A stretch of 64,000 bases of DNA from Eledone cirrhosa (taxonomy: Eukaryota). The stretch is taken from positions 12,958,001 through 13,022,000 of the forward strand of contig OZ024743.1 in the NCBI GenBank assembly GCA_964016885.1, in the 5' to 3' direction. Below are positions 6,731 to 46,083 of the stretch, one piece after another. The stretch's first letter is position 1, and each line of letters opens with the position of its first letter. Both the position numbers and the translations under genes were made by a program. The notes beneath the pieces are model-generated. The model worked only from the letters and a program-made list of their open reading frames with translations. It was not told where the DNA came from and searched no databases.

Positions 6731-7297
6731 CATCTGTATACATATGTCGGTAGATATATTAATTCTTTATAATTATCTCCAAATTATTTGTTGAGCAAAA
6801 TTTGCCGAAATTACCACTCTGATTAATAGTAGTGGCTAGGCTCTGTCTTAATAGCACCCCCACTCCTAGCTGATTAACCTCAGTGTCACGTGATTGATTC
6901 TTTTGAATTTGCCACTTGACCAAGTAGGCAGTGAATTTTTCAATGTCCTGGAATCTAGCCCCGCTCGCTTTTTTCCATCCACTGAATTATTTTTATATAA
7001 GTTCCCAGTGTCCCCGCATTGCCTGGAAGCTTAGTTGAGAATAGACTCCCTGATGACGTAAGGCTTCTCTATGGGTACACTCCGTAACCATATTTATCCC
7101 CCTTACAGAAACTAATTAGTTGGAGTGAAATTTTTGTAAGTAAGTCAATTTTCATAACTTTCTTATTTACGTCTTTCATATAATTGTTCTGCATCCCCTT
7201 GCATAGAACCACAAAGTTATTAAGACAAAACATATATATCTGCTAGCATAGGTATGCATCTGTATACATATGTCGGTAGATATATTAATTCTTTATA
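6731..7297 (+). mobile_element. Retrozyme-like unit J: 526-nt period, 41-bp terminal redundancy, one hammerhead
   Basis: catctgtatacatatgtcggtagatatattaattctttata at both 6731 and 7257; followed by (TA)n. Confidence 0.85.
7045..7126 (+). ncRNA. Type I hammerhead ribozyme
   Basis: actcc/ggagt; CTGATGA 7050-7056; stem II gtaagg/ccttac; GAAA 7108-7111; palindrome ACTAATTAGT; GUU. Confidence 0.88.
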
Positions 7298-7561
7298 TAT
7301 ATATATATATATATATATATATATATATATATATATATATATATATATATATATATATATATATACGTGTGTGTGTGTGTGTGTGTGTGTGTATGGTTAT
7401 ATATATATATATATATATATATATATATATATATATATATATATATATATATATATATACACATATAGTGCGACGTTACTAGCTAATCATAACAATACAT
7501 GCGAGTTCATTTTTCAACTCTAACTCCCAGTGGATAATAATTATTTTGCAGTACTAAAAGA

Positions 7562-7663
7562 CATGCTGATGATGACCATTGTCTTACATTTACTGATTAT
7601 CTGGTTTATTTTAATTATGGTAATTGGTATAGTTTTTCTTTTGTTTGGAAACTGCAGTATAAG
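7562..7663 (+). ncRNA. Decayed hammerhead in a pLTR-like unit (about 7466-7888; its end recurs inverted at 8224-8265)
   Basis: CTGATGA 7566-7572; GAAA-CTGCAG-TA 7648-7659 with palindromic stem III; stems I and II imperfect. Confidence 0.5.
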
Positions 7664-8488
7664 CAAGAATTTAATTGTAATGTCAGTGAGTGAAAAGTTT
7701 TGTCTTAGTCAATTACCTGGTTCGTTATATTACAAAATTTAATTATTGTTGTTTCTATAATAACATTGTATGGGTATGTTCTGAATAATTATATTTTTGC
7801 AAATAATAGTTAATGAACTTTTATGGTGCAAGTAAATCGAGATAAATAACAGGAGGCATGTTCTGGTGTAAATCCATGAAAGGTTTTTATATATATATAT
7901 ATATATATATATATATATATATATATATATATATATATATATATATATATATATATATATATATATATATATATATAATAACTAGAAATTGATTAACATA
8001 TAAATATACACGAATAATCATATAAATATACATGAATAATGCTCAGATTTATCTTAGAGCTTAATTTCCAGGATATATGGCGCATGCCTTATGACATTAC
8101 ACCCACAATTTCGATTTAGATTAAATACATTTAATTTAATTTATCTTAATTTTGGATTTATATATATATATATATATATATATATATATATATATATATA
8201 TATATATATATATATATATATATAAACCTTTCAAGGATTTACACCAGAACATGCCTCCTGTTATTTTGTAATAATTAACTCCGTACTCGCACCACCAACT
8301 ACACAAACGAAGACGGGTGGTTGCATTACGTTGAGTGCTTTCCATAACATTTCATCGTGGCTGACCACACAGAATGACCAGCTCTATCCAGTGGCGAACC
8401 AGCAAACCTAAATAAACAATTATATATATATATATATATATATATATATATATATATATATATATAGAGAGAGAGAGAGAGAGAGAGA

Positions 8489-42900: not shown

Positions 42901-44934
42901 AAGCATTCGACCATGCTGCTTCTATATATACACATCCCATGCACATATTCATATATTCAGAGGCGCATACATGTACTTGTAAGACACTTTAAAAATAGAT
43001 TAATCTTTCGAAAGATTGGACATGTGTTTGTCAAGACATGCAGGAATATTATATAGAAAAATAATTAAATTCGGATCGCAGTATGAGTAAGTGTTTGTAC
43101 CTCAACGTAGAGATGTTAAGATACAAGGACGTGGATGCATCTGATGGCAGAAGTGGCATGCAGCTTGCCAAGTCAGACGGATTGATAAACTGGTTACTTG
43201 TACATATATACAGAGATATATATCTTATACGCAAATGAAAATAGAGGTCTGACAAGAGATGATGATATTGACAACACCGATGATGGGGATGATGGTTATA
43301 GCTGAATGCTCAAACAATTTGAGAGTCATCAGTAATATCGTTGGACTAATTATATATACCAAATATGAATATCTAAATAGATGATGACGACGACGACGAT
43401 GGCAACGCTGAAGATGATGAAGAAGATAATTGTTTCTACTTTTGGCACAAGGCGAGCAATTATCCAGTACATTACTGGTACTTTATTTTATCGACCCCGT
43501 AAGGATGAAAAGCAAAGTTGACCTCGGCGGGGTTTGAACTCAGAATGGAAAGGGCCGTAACTCTATGTGTCAAAGCATGGTGTCCGACTCTGTACCGATA
43601 CTGCCAATCCACCGATGACGAAGAAGATAATTGATGGATGGATTCACCAGAAATTGTTTAACATGGTATTTGAACCAAAGATTCCTCAAACATGTCAATG
43701 TGCCGAGCTATCACAGCCTTAGAGAGATGTAACCTGATCTCACCAATACACTCAGTAAAATAGTAAGTTAATCTCGAAATTATGTAGAAGAAATTATGGA
43801 AAATCTTAAATATTCCAACATAGTCAATTTGCTTGAAATAACAACAAATCATTCCCTAAAGTCATAAAAAGGAAGGACAAAAAGCGGGATTCTCACGACT
43901 GGAAGGCTCTGTGTCATAAGTCTTCTTGCTTCAGGCAGATATGGTCTCAAAAAATAAAAAATTAACAACTACTTCAAGCTGTGTGACTCAAGGAGAAATA
44001 TTTACAATTACGATGTGTGTTTATCCAGTGCGCGTTTTTGTGAGTAAAATGACTTCAGTACCGACATCACAAATAGAGCGTCGTTTGGATACGAACTTCT
44101 CATGGCTGTTCGGCAATTTAGAGATTAAGGAAACACCAGCTTATCAATGCCAGTGTATGTTTTCGCTTCTGGCGAAAGAATACACTCTTCCACTTAAAGC
44201 AGAAGAATGTACACTTCCACTTTAAGTAGAAGAATGAACATTTCTGCTGAAGGTGGAAGAAGTGAAATCTGTCATGAACATAACATGAATTCGTCTGTCT
44301 ATTGACCCATTTTTTCTTTGCTCTTTAGACTGAGAGCATTGCTGTATTCTATTGTATGAACTACGAGAACTTCCAATAAAATTATATTGAAGCATATATT
44401 TACTCTAAGCGTTGTTTGTCTATGTGTCTTCTGTATTTGACTAGCATTCTTACTCAAATTGAAATTCCCCCTGTCCCCAATCCAGCTCTCTTATCTTTAC
44501 CCACTTTCTTTCTCTCCTCTTCACTATATCACTTTGTATGTACTATGTACGTTTCCACTTCTCTTTTCCTATATATGTCTATATATATATACATACACAC
44601 ACACACACATACACTCGCGCGCGCACAGACACACACACACACACATATATATATACGTATATCCATATGTGGTGGTCGGCTCAGAGGAAAGAGTACTCAA
44701 TACCGAAGTAGATTTTTAATATTCATTTTAAGACTCACTATTTATCCATAATTGTTTCTACTTTTGGCACAAGGTCAGCAATTATCCCAGTGTATTACTG
44801 GTACTTTATTTTATCGTAAGGATGAAAGGCAAAGTTAACCTCGGTGGGACTTGAACTCAGACCTCAAAGGTCCGTAACTCTTTGCTGCAAAGCATAGCGT
44901 CCAACCCTCTATCGATACTGCCAATCCACCGCCC
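39951..44934 (-). mobile_element. Cluster of tRNA-derived SINEs: 39951-40231, 40251-40428, 41818-42007, 43428-43614, 44749-44934
   Basis: Shared ggcacaaggccagcaatt...tcgaccccgtaaggatgaaaggcaaagttaacctcggc..atttgaactc (B box on the minus strand). Confidence 0.85.
40605..41110. repeat. Compound TAG/CAG microsatellite with about three higher-order copies
   Basis: gttgctgtta.tgtttctgttgatg at about 40751, 40916 and 41054. Confidence 0.85.
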
Positions 44935-45400
44935 TTATTTATCCATAATAAAATGAATATATATATGTATATCAAAAGTATATATTGAGTTAGAAACTCA
45001 GAATAGTCTCTTACAATTAAAATAGCTCAAGAAAAAAAATTTCCGAGCCGTATAATATAATTTAATAGAATAAAGAGAGATAAATACAGATATATACATA
45101 TATGTGTTCAAATCATAAGGGACCTAAATCACCCTAGAGATTCAGATCCCTCATGATTTGAACACATATATGTATATATCTGTGTATATATATCTGTGTA
45201 TATATATGTATATATGTATATATATATATGAAAATTGAAAATTGTGCAAATGATCATAATAAGAGTTGATCGCTATAAATAATAGTTGAGAAAATTTGGT
45301 AAAGACGGAAAAAGTTGACAGAGGCCCCTCACCATACCGAGAACAATTGTTGTGTTACCACGTCTATATATATATATATATATATATATATATATATATA

Positions 45401-46083
45401 TACAATATGTTGAAAAGGTAACACACCAGAGAGAGATATACAGTGCTTTATCAATGTATTTTAAAGAGCTCGGGATCTCTTCTCCTTTGAGCACATTATT
45501 TACAGGGAATAACGACGGCCTATGCCTCCGTTAATTTATCGTGATATTTCGCTCCTAATAACAGTCTTTCCTATCTCTGTTTGGTTGAACACACTTCTCT
45601 GAGTGGCTTTGGGCTGCCCTTTCTAGCAGTTCGTGCCTCAGAGGCCACTGGTTCACTGCCCTTAAACACGCTGTGACTTCTCTCTCCCACGTGTAGCTGG
45701 ACAGTCAATTTTAAAATTCTCTTAGTGTTGTCTGAAATGTATAGCCTTACACACGCTGATGAACCGAGACTAACCCATTTCTTTCAACAAATTTTTGGTG
45801 AAACATATCTTTGGATTTGTACGTGTATTATATAGTTATAGATGTATTTATTTACGCTTTAATTTATATTTTTAATTCTCGTGTCTATAGTCTGCCTTTC
45901 ATAGGTTATAGATTCCATACACTGGTGGTTTTTCCCCTGTATTATTGATAACGCACTGTATATCTCTCTCTGGTGTGTTACCTCTTCAACATATTGTATT
46001 TTAAAGAGGTCAGGATCTCTTCTCCTTTGAGCACATTATTTACAGGGAATAGCGAGGGCCTATGCCTCCGTTAATTTATCGTG
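45401..46083 (+). mobile_element. Retrozyme-like unit I: 540-nt period, about 89-bp redundancy, 46-bp inverted 5' cap
   Basis: 45455-45543 repeats at 45995-46083; 45401-45446 is the reverse complement of 45953-45998; (TA)n on both sides. Confidence 0.9.
45751..45826 (+). ncRNA. Type I hammerhead ribozyme
   Basis: acacg-CTGATGA-accgaga...ttttggt-GAAA-catatc tttg gatttg-TA-cgtgt. Confidence 0.9.

Follow-up and report, generated by a model that had tools for sequence, protein, structure and literature searches.

Elements of the kind treated here have already been described (Cervera & de la Pena 2020; Craig et al. 2021; Li et al. 2026, preprint). Animal non-LTR retrozymes (PMC7229834; 10.64898/2026.07.22.740005) are short, AT-rich and non-coding, carry a type I hammerhead ribozyme, occur as partial or full tandems of monomers reported to range from 51 to 972 bp, form many families per genome and have a Penelope-like element (PLE) as proposed helper; circles were demonstrated for the coral, mussel and axolotl repeats (PMC7229834). 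Molluscs are absent from the 2026 survey (10.64898/2026.07.22.740005), and octopus from the 2020 text (PMC7229834). Among coding PLEs, the Hydra clade, as treated in the accessible part of Craig et al. 2021 (PMC8557442), is characterized by a (TA)n target, partial tandems, a canonical hammerhead close to the 3' terminus, an inverted 5'-truncated arm, a tail on one side, and DKT, CxCx5C, CxxC and CxH motifs; this part of the source lists no non-autonomous Hydra family and contains no twin bulged hairpin. An octopus entry, Hydra-1_Obim, likewise has a (TA)n target. In vitro TPRT of the Anolis Poseidon element PAc revealed two RT start positions within the RNA, one at either end of the tail, with extension of both strands (Frangieh et al. 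2024, PMC11167929); a dimer was predicted, the hammerhead was dispensable and downstream RNA was required.

The window analyzed here, i.e., the whole 64,000-nt stretch of the Eledone cirrhosa genome, harbours six repeat units (U1–U6) that resemble animal non-LTR retrozymes in most of the features named above, including a monomer length within the reported range, the type I hammerhead being intact in the majority of copies or consensus of four of the six families. Instead of forming long arrays, they are dispersed insertions of 0.1–4.4 units that bear inverted arms; further differences are the two mapped start sites and the dead ribozyme of two families. Target, hammerhead position (where canonical), partial tandems, inverted 5'-truncated arm and one-sided tail agree with the Hydra clade as far as described in the accessible part of PMC8557442, and coding copies in the window bear the clade motifs; in contrast, the units are non-coding and their tails (63–143 nt) are longer than the 30–40 nt described. 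The two internal starts bounding the tail recall PAc (PMC11167929), but in PAc both fall into a single AC-rich stem-loop of the ORF and lack homology to the target, whereas the unit starts are TA-rich, far apart, situated in non-coding RNA and mostly followed by a hairpin of their own. MRC1 and other non-autonomous Chlamys elements (Craig et al. 2021) are likewise non-coding PLE derivatives with pLTRs, head-to-tail multimers and microsatellite targets, but these are green-algal, hammerhead-less and clearly homologous to their helpers at the 3' end, a homology not seen for the units. U1–U6 are best regarded as non-autonomous PLEs of the Hydra type, a kind for which the name animal retrozymes is in use.

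Repeat families and sampling

U1–U6 represent genuine repeated families with monomers of 525–526 (U1), 508 (U2), 428 (U3), 539 (U4), 569 (U5) and 540 nt (U6), and coding capacity is absent (longest ATG-ORF 22–79 aa). A first-pass annotation had placed six non-coding units of about these lengths beside (TA)n/(CA)n, and this holds: the insertions target (TA)n, and (TA)n or (CA)n adjoins the 3' end of each window unit. The direct terminal redundancy reported for five of them was also recovered (45 nt in U1, 33–36 in U2, 80 in U4, ~200 in U5 and 89–93 in U6), as was the interruption of U2, caused by a 1.07-kb insertion. That the units are largely unalignable was overstated, since identity amounts to 72 % across 165 nt between U2 and U4 and to 83 % across 40 nt between U4 and U5, in both cases in the start-site region.

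The E. cirrhosa genome was searched per family, the best 40 of 3061–5332 candidates being scored; the 180 family loci were chosen as those closest to the window copies, which over-represents long and similar copies. An unselected census covered 845 kb per family (264 kb contiguous) and gave a rough density of 5–19 arms per 845 kb. Just 8 of its 24 fixed-end arms measure at least one unit, and six of these eight are U1–U6 of the window; the previously proposed size constraint thus applies to the monomer, the length of which is limited, but not to the insertions. Three contig sets from one sample confirmed a high-copy, variable family, the ends not being resolvable in contigs. A general repeat search of the window was swamped by microsatellites.

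Two fixed 3' ends and inverted arms

Every family possesses a pair of fixed 3' ends (A and B; 63–143 nt apart), and the order within the monomer is always hammerhead (or its relic), start A, tail, start B. Among the family loci, 244 of 274 arms (165 non-duplicate loci) finish at most 6 nt from A or B, compared with ~5–6 % expected by chance; in the unselected sample 24/26 arms do so at ≥85 % identity and 39/54 at any identity (chance 7–9 %). The circular permutation claimed by the first-pass annotation is contradicted by these fixed ends, and the supposedly permuted sister copy of U3 (35122–35530) ends at the same A site. The 5' ends, in contrast, are ragged and randomly placed, and arms extend 5'-ward over unit boundaries into partial tandems of up to 4.36 units, with U6 arrays of 3.6 and 4.4 units.

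In the window, U1 (6727–7297, plus strand, 1.09 units) ends at B and is followed by (TA)n, while U2 (13378–14993, plus strand, ~1.08 units, split by the later insertion at ~13411–14478) ends at A. The main arm of U3 (16471–16910, plus strand, 1.03 units) ends at A before (CA)n(TA)n and is joined to an inverted arm of 0.64 unit ending at B (16188–16473, minus strand). U4 consists of a main arm ending at A (20905–21521, minus strand, 1.15 units; end at 20905) and an inverted arm of 0.3 unit ending at B (21520–21681, plus strand). The main arm of U5 (37034–37818, minus strand, 1.38 units) terminates at B, somewhere in the TA-rich stretch 37034–37051, and its inverted arm (37825–37940, plus strand, 0.2 unit) at A. 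In case of U6, the main arm (45455–46087, plus strand, 1.17 units; its two redundant ends are different family haplotypes) ends at B and the inverted arm (45400–45455, minus strand, 0.1 unit) at A. The inverted, 5'-truncated second arms of these four units (U3–U6) had been missed previously. Additional insertions comprise older head-to-head copies of U3 (34800–35530, hammerheads at 35037 on the minus and 35283 on the plus strand) and U5 (12991–13349), a short head-to-head U2 copy (44968–45185) and further arms of U3 (36391–36540; 38306–38443) and U5 (7974–8172).

Of the 74 head-to-head junctions that could be classified, 71 unite an A arm with a B arm, a further 18 junctions having a damaged end; the tail is present on one side only. 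Both start sites contain a few TA bases, providing micro-homology to the target. By their structure, the fixed paired starts, tail, ragged 5' ends and inverted arms are classified as PLE anatomy. Fold-back self-priming of one cDNA, or sense plus antisense templates (Arkhipova 2013, PMC3846280), would produce head-to-head arms from other than two primed starts; the alleles common to both arms (see below) would fit such a single molecule, as would 5' ends at most 5 nt apart in 8/92 junctions and short overlaps in 42/92. However, 84/92 junctions unite different monomer positions, a folded-back copy should end where the first arm began and not at the other fixed site, and each start site tends to have a separate hairpin, making this origin distinctly unlikely.

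Hammerhead ribozymes

A descriptor for the hammerhead matched 190 times in 939,799 bases and not once in the shuffled control. Two targeted Rfam scans did not find the motif, and in a scan of the whole window it is absent among the 150 of 305 matches listed, which are dominated by microsatellite-driven miRNA matches. Canonical type I hammerheads represent the family majority in U1, U2, U3 and U6. The earlier count of one hammerhead per unit stands for the window copies of U1 (7045–7126, plus strand; CUGAUGA, GAAA, GUU cut triplet and palindromic stem III; intact in 39/57 family copies), U3 (16662–16704, plus strand; minimal, with palindromic stem III; 28/40) and U6 (45751–45826, plus strand; 34/45). 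In U2 (14739–14812, plus strand) it fails by one core base, the window copy reading CCGAUGA in place of the majority CUGAUGA (intact in 12/32 copies). U4 and U5 harbour relics only, in the window and at family level: in U4 (21120–21191, minus strand) the core is UUGAUAA in 32/36 copies and stem I is not in register, and in U5 (37390–37464, minus strand) 8 nt are inserted within the CUGA/UGA core in 30/38 copies, GAAA often being altered as well.

These data bear on the classical retrozyme cycle, in which hammerheads would cut tandem transcripts, the monomers would be ligated to circles and a PLE RT would roll round them from A and B. The four families with an intact majority agree with this cycle, as do the circles known from other animals, the apparent identity of tandem units at birth and the read-through of cleavage sites: among U1, U2, U3 and U6, 149 of 182 arms cross at least one and 37 at least two such sites (none of the six window units crosses two), so that a cut linear monomer cannot be the template. 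Against it, the broken-core families U4 and U5 were amplified to the same multi-unit arms (up to 2.6–2.7 units), and mosaic arms exist. The majority of genomic arms contain one hammerhead or none, so that few loci could release a monomer. A strong-stop pile-up of 5' ends at the cut was sought without finding an excess (4/182 versus 4.0 expected). Furthermore, insertion in vitro was unaffected by hammerhead mutants and no anole reads end at the cut site (PMC11167929), and 8/9 Xenopus dimers lack cleavage. A ribozyme-driven cycle therefore appears unlikely, and the role formerly ascribed to hammerhead cleavage is not supported by the spread of dead-core families or by the position of 5' ends. 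Circular RNA is possible for the units, but would not depend on the ribozyme.

Bulged hairpins and a probable coding Hydra-clade partner

A bulged CTC...GAG hairpin is located at most 14 nt 3' of 9 of the 12 start sites (chance ~0.06 per site, with a descriptor derived from these same families). It is present in U1 directly 3' of the upstream copy of site B (CTC...GAGC, 6777–6796, plus strand; site A shows a similar fold instead), in U2 3' of site A (14492–14516, plus strand), in U4 after both starts (21338–21434, minus strand; A 21410–21434, B 21338–21354), in U5 after both starts (37581–37739, minus strand; A 37711–37739 with a second copy at 37143–37171, B 37581–37597) and in U6; it was found at neither site of U3. 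The coding Hydra-clade PLE copy L235 carries it after both start sites. It also lies 20–50 nt past the hammerhead in families C1, C2, C4 and C17 and in variants of PLE-B, a coding copy in the window, and, in C1, C2, C4 and PLE-B, ~5–20 nt beyond the end of the shorter arms.

PLE-B (21750–25848, minus strand) contains an ORF (25608–23278) with one in-frame stop and a hammerhead (21791–21855); its main arm ends at A (21750) and its inverted arm (~25670–25848) at B. A second, broken Hydra-type coding copy, PLE-A (9–2790, plus strand), carries a short inverted arm, and its hammerhead lies at 158. Helper-type ORFs reach 816 aa, show DKT, the CxCx5C linker and CxxC/CxH motifs in 6/6 copies examined and have a C-terminal GIY-YIG-type nuclease; the invariant W39 and Y636/G638 are present in copy A1. 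By these motifs, the helper-type copies are assigned to the Hydra clade. An alignment-based model of the RT (pLDDT 89) had TERT as top fold match (E 8.8e-10), while the single-sequence model (pLDDT 35) was unusable and a PDB sequence search with the alignment gave weak RT matches only (E ~1). Pfam assigned no family to 8 window ORF pieces, 2 long ORFs and 9 homologues; PF26215 is a precomputed annotation on many homologues.

Since fixed 3' and ragged 5' ends are typical for truncated PLEs and Hydra coding copies abound in the genome (75,311 first-look candidates), the units might be no more than coding elements truncated to their 3' part (pLTR plus tail). This reading is largely refuted and highly improbable: 5'-ward, arms re-enter the same 0.43–0.57-kb non-coding monomer up to 4.36 units, and the ends of PLE-A and PLE-B align with no unit. 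None of 276 arms represents the 3' end of a coding element or runs into a Hydra ORF, an ORF piece being near 8/276, of which seven were inspected (six by sequence; one is inserted within an RT ORF). Fixed ends and solo ends of coding elements had both been named by the first-pass annotation as arguments against its own proposal; only the former were found. A helper with long homology to any unit was not found in ~950 kb, and the link between units and helper consists of the 17–30-nt hairpin, the order of parts and the target. A coding Hydra-clade PLE of the PLE-B type is the likely helper, and mobilization by a Penelope-like RT, as already suggested, is favoured by the paired fixed starts, tail, inverted arms, (TA)n target and common hairpin.

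Source alleles and probable re-copying of the monomer

Opposite arms of one insertion share most minor alleles in U1 (130/138 sites), U4 (80/84), U6 (68/74), U5 (57/70) and U2 (45/67), and 17/56 in U3, compared with 11–24 % between loci. Tandem units diverge by 2.5 % and same-register arms by 2.6 % (54 paired loci, P 0.5). Allele sharing within arms is weaker (U2 30/60, U3 28/69, U5 51/128, the last partly due to end and gap artefacts), and some U6 and U2 arms are mosaics of two haplotypes. Because the arms and tandem units of one insertion usually carry the same source alleles at equal divergence, one monomer seems to have been re-copied to build both; the earlier proposal of repeated copying agrees with arms of up to 4.36 units and with unit likeness equal to that of two copies of the same template stretch.

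Alternatively, a few long arrays expanded at the DNA level could supply linear multimer transcripts, the dispersed copies being shortened daughters and the monomer never re-copied. Such a scenario was sketched by Frangieh et al. (PMC11167929), and the U6 arrays of 3.6 and 4.4 units would suit it, as would recurring directional within-arm differences at U2 position 501 (6 loci) and U6 position 58 (4 loci). However, divergence among the units of an arm does not exceed that between two copies made from one template stretch, and position-specific differences are mostly gap or end artefacts, few recurring after the removal of gap artefacts. Moreover, 66/466 alleles common to tandem units occur at a single sampled locus each and point to many sources. 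Master arrays are therefore rather unlikely as the source.

RNA editing, which predicts a sense-strand A>G excess, was considered and rejected: unit-private changes comprise 143 A>G versus 176 T>C (P 0.43), and the surplus seen for shared changes (109 versus 97) reflects pseudo-replication by subfamily.

Proposed mechanism and implications

U1–U6 are probably independent non-autonomous PLEs, at least five of which would use a Hydra-clade RT-endonuclease in trans from starts A and B without requiring hammerhead cleavage. The helper, probably as a dimer, would bind the two bulged hairpins situated directly 3' of A and B and nick both strands of a (TA)n tract; the nicks, aided by the few TA bases of the start sites, would prime one cDNA at each start, templated by the same RNA or by RNAs of one source. 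End-joining of the two cDNAs would yield head-to-head arms with a one-sided tail, and survival of only one arm a partial tandem with terminal redundancy. Length may be regained through repeated copying of the monomer by the RT, which would jump from end to end of an uncut, terminally redundant transcript or travel round a circle; cleavage by the hammerhead would not be needed for this. Tentatively, one may speculate further that a dimeric Hydra RT binds both homologous hairpins of a single RNA, primes both (TA)n strands at once and, without needing the hammerhead, re-copies the monomer on a circle or by end-to-end jumps, with U4 and U5 possibly being ribozyme-less (pseudo-)circular replicons beside ribozyme-bearing ones.

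The origin of PLE pLTR tandems, inverted arms and tails and the role of hammerheads are stated open questions (Craig et al. 2021; Frangieh et al. 2024). U1–U6 represent natural 0.5-kb minimal templates, with a candidate RT-docking hairpin common to otherwise unrelated families and a coding element. The strict A+B rule, the ribozyme-dead families as natural controls and the helper ORFs without interruption render these PLE questions directly testable. Judging from these findings, many so-called 'retrozymes' may be ordinary PLEs of the non-autonomous sort with an optional ribozyme, and in the E. cirrhosa genome a sizeable share of unclassified repeats next to (TA)n may be of the same kind.

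Unit families in the window and the genome

The six units placed by the first-pass annotation between positions 6731 and 46083 of the window (U1–U6; monomers of 428–569 nt) are all present with the periods reported; they are indeed non-coding, and each belongs to a repeated family. Per family, searches of the 3.0-Gb genome yielded 3061–5332 first-look candidates, the best 40 of which were scored and 30 loci fetched. These 180 loci, representing best matches to the window copies, were freed of 15 duplicates and mapped individually onto the circularised monomer, with orientation set by the hammerhead. 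The direct terminal redundancy ascribed to five units was found in five, U3 having only about 9 nt, and inverted second arms (an arm being one inserted copy stretch) had been overlooked on window U3, U4, U5 and U6. (TA)n is very abundant in the window. Its supposedly striking density of units (20 arms vs 7 in the adjacent 200 kb) is partly due to ascertainment, although 52 additional hammerheads from a descriptor scan of genomic DNA, falling into 21 clusters, show that many further families are present.

Fixed 3′ ends and inverted arms

Every family possesses two 3′ ends (A and B, taken as the start sites of reverse transcription), directly followed by (TA)n and spaced 115 (U1), 85 (U2), 63 (U3), 82 (U4), 143 (U5) or 88 nt (U6) apart; end B of U5 falls inside a TA-rich stretch. 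Among the 165 non-duplicate fetched loci, 244 of 274 arms (at least 84 % identity) stop no more than 6 nt from A or B. The 5′ ends are scattered, and the longest arms cross unit boundaries (2.69, 2.13, 2.88, 2.62, 2.70 and 4.36 units for U1–U6, respectively). To allow for the selection of these loci by similarity to the window copies, ends were recounted in DNA that had not been retrieved for the family concerned (~845 kb per family, including the window): 24/26 arms of at least 85 % identity (10/11 outside the window) and 39/54 arms of any identity end at A or B (chance 7–9 %), most arms being shorter than one unit. Free permutation of the monomer is absent. The 92 head-to-head junctions (main arm plus inverted arm) comprise 71 of type A+B, 2 A+A, 1 B+B and 18 with a damaged end. 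The longest arms seen are those of U6 at the fetched loci L176 (G000:C2:344472487-344476114; 4.36 units) and L154 (3.57 units); tandem units of the latter differ at just 5 of 1351 compared sites.

Intact and broken hammerheads

By descriptor scan (190 matches in 939,799 bases of this genome, 0 in shuffled DNA), the family majorities of U1, U2, U3 and U6 contain a canonical type I hammerhead, which is intact in 39/57, 12/32, 28/40 and 34/45 copies, respectively. A hammerhead had been attributed to each unit, which applies to these four families but not to U4 (core UUGAUAA in 32/36 copies) and U5 (8-nt core insertion in 30/38 copies, GAAA often altered). As the defects are common to the copies, they were present already in the source elements. 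Rfam provided no hammerhead among the 150 of 305 window matches listed, nor in targeted scans. In the U5 relic at 37390–37464, stems II and III are kept and the 8-nt insertion is fixed, possibly representing a core-insertion variant.

Hairpin downstream of the start sites

A hairpin consisting of CTC, a variable inner stem with loop, a two-base bulge and GAG is located a few TA bases 3′ of nine of the 12 start sites (both sites of U2, U4, U5 and U6; B of U1), the chance per site being ~0.06 within monomers and 0.004 in genomic background. None was found at the start sites of U3, and this family may be served by another helper. Because the descriptor was derived from the U families themselves, its occurrence elsewhere matters: the same hairpin lies 3′ of both start sites of a coding Penelope-like element (PLE) copy elsewhere in the genome (L235), a few bases beyond the short end in C1, C2 and C4 (other hammerhead families) and in variants of PLE-B (a coding window copy), and is present also in the hammerhead families C17 and C21. 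In hairpins with an inner stem, G-C or A-T predominates as outer pair (315 and 109 copies, non-independent). No published description of this hairpin was found in the PLE and retrozyme literature covered; the supplements of a 2026 preprint, outside this coverage, may bear on it.

Template and re-copying

As no copy has the hairpin following B at its 3′ end, the template would have to be a tandem or circular RNA running beyond the start site. Source alleles are shared within insertions by tandem units (U1 87/91, U4 59/63, U6 151/162, U5 51/128, U2 30/60, U3 28/69) and by opposite arms (U1 130/138, U4 80/84, U6 68/74, U5 57/70, U2 45/67, U3 17/56), far above the 11–24 % between loci. After masking of ends and gaps, differences between tandem units amount to 874 of 35,658 sites and those between same-register opposite arms to 442 of 16,590; at 54 paired loci, the differences are 2.5 % vs 2.6 % (P 0.5). 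Tandem units being no more diverged than opposite arms, they were nearly identical at the time of insertion. Perfect re-copying of one monomer is nevertheless argued against by mosaic arms, window U6 among them, and by the weaker allele sharing in U2 and U3. A hammerhead-cut linear monomer as template conflicts with 149 of 182 arms running across the cleavage site and with the lack of a 5′-end pile-up there, while the same behaviour of U4 and U5 despite their dead cores speaks against a ribozyme-made circle as general rule. A linear-only scheme would lose one unit length per generation, so that length must be regained, which could proceed via a circle, end-to-end jumps or long arrays.

Coding Penelope-like elements as probable helpers

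The window harbours ORFs of two coding Hydra-type PLE copies, PLE-A (445–2575, + strand) and PLE-B (25608–23278, − strand). PLE-B, with 75,311 first-look candidates in the own-genome search, displays the Hydra-clade motifs DKT, CxCx5C, CxxC and CxH (Craig et al. 2021, PMC8557442) in 6/6 fetched copies (open frames of 708–816 aa). L235, when modelled from an alignment (pLDDT 89), has TERT as best predicted fold match. Those homologues of the window's PLE protein that are assigned to a species all come from Argonauta, which makes an octopod host probable; the supplement of Craig et al. 2021 (PMC8557442) contains Hydra-1_Obim from octopus with (TA)n as target. The layout of PLE-B is that of the units (hammerhead, A, 87-nt tail between the two ends, B), followed by the ORF, and its insertion comprises an A arm plus an inverted B arm. 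The units as truncated coding PLE copies, with ends always part of coding Penelope elements, were considered and rejected: U1–U6 yield no long alignment to PLE-A or PLE-B, and 0/276 arms continue into an ORF. The units are therefore separate elements.

The PLE-B tail region (25594–25851) recurs as a stand-alone stump at 49024–49111, and the 3′ UTR of ~1.5 kb is unusually long for a Hydra element. A Cys-rich GIY-YIG piece (52609–52881) and an RT piece (9377–9655), both without a family in Pfam, resemble another PLE clade, a possible candidate helper type for U3.

Other elements in the window

A very short palindromic head-to-head hammerhead family (15133–15308; cores at 15185, +, and 15176, −; relatives at 35615–35815 and 60610–60776) shows the hairpin of the U families 3′ of end A and has 10 matches in the genomic DNA scanned. 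Another head-to-head hammerhead element (27443–28070; cores at 27726, +, and 27492, −) has a CTC...GAGC hairpin 207 nt downstream. The 1.07-kb insertion in U2 (13411–14478) contains a 37-nt minisatellite (13716–14058) and (CAGA)n, has a terminal hairpin rich in GC, and resembles a Helentron-associated non-autonomous element. Short palindromic elements beside (TA)n (6530–6727, 8739–8958, 42301–42466, 60198–60358), the first of which adjoins the 5′ end of U1, form one family and could represent additional PLE stumps or MITEs. Dispersed SINE-like elements of ~190 nt, all of one family, are found at 17728–17960, 39949–40429, 41812–42028, 43423–43614 and 44748–44954, several of them grouped within 5 kb. 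Three copies at 31445–34098 and 62929–63800 are, judging by their motifs, presumably L1/Tx1-like non-LTR ORF2 fragments, and 29923–31270 and 40633–41055 are long stretches of imperfect trinucleotide repeats, (TAG)n/(CAG)n.

Relation to known elements

The anatomy of the units agrees with the PLE structure of partial tandem, inverted 5′-truncated copy and one-sided tail (Craig et al. 2021, PMC8557442; Arkhipova et al. 2013, PMC3846280). In the experiments of Frangieh et al. 2024 (PMC11167929), two internal RT start sites delimited the tail, RNA lying downstream of them was required, both strands of the target were extended, and mutation of the hammerhead left insertion normal. Non-autonomous PLEs with pLTRs are known from the Chlamys group (Craig et al. 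2021, PMC8557442), and a cephalopod repeat survey (PMC8967140) mentions Penelope and discarded unknown repeats. Animal non-LTR retrozymes are short hammerhead-bearing tandem repeats moved by PLEs (Cervera & de la Pena 2020, PMC7229834; Li et al. 2026) and have been argued to be non-autonomous PLEs (Li et al. 2026). The units resemble retrozymes as probable PLE passengers with possible circular RNA and self-cleavage, but U4 and U5 differ in not qualifying as hammerhead-bearing. Hammerhead-bearing PLE passengers are a kind already described; new here are an anatomy of twin starts and twin hairpins mapped on the monomers, the rule that an A arm is paired with a B arm sharing its alleles, and the natural ribozyme-dead families.
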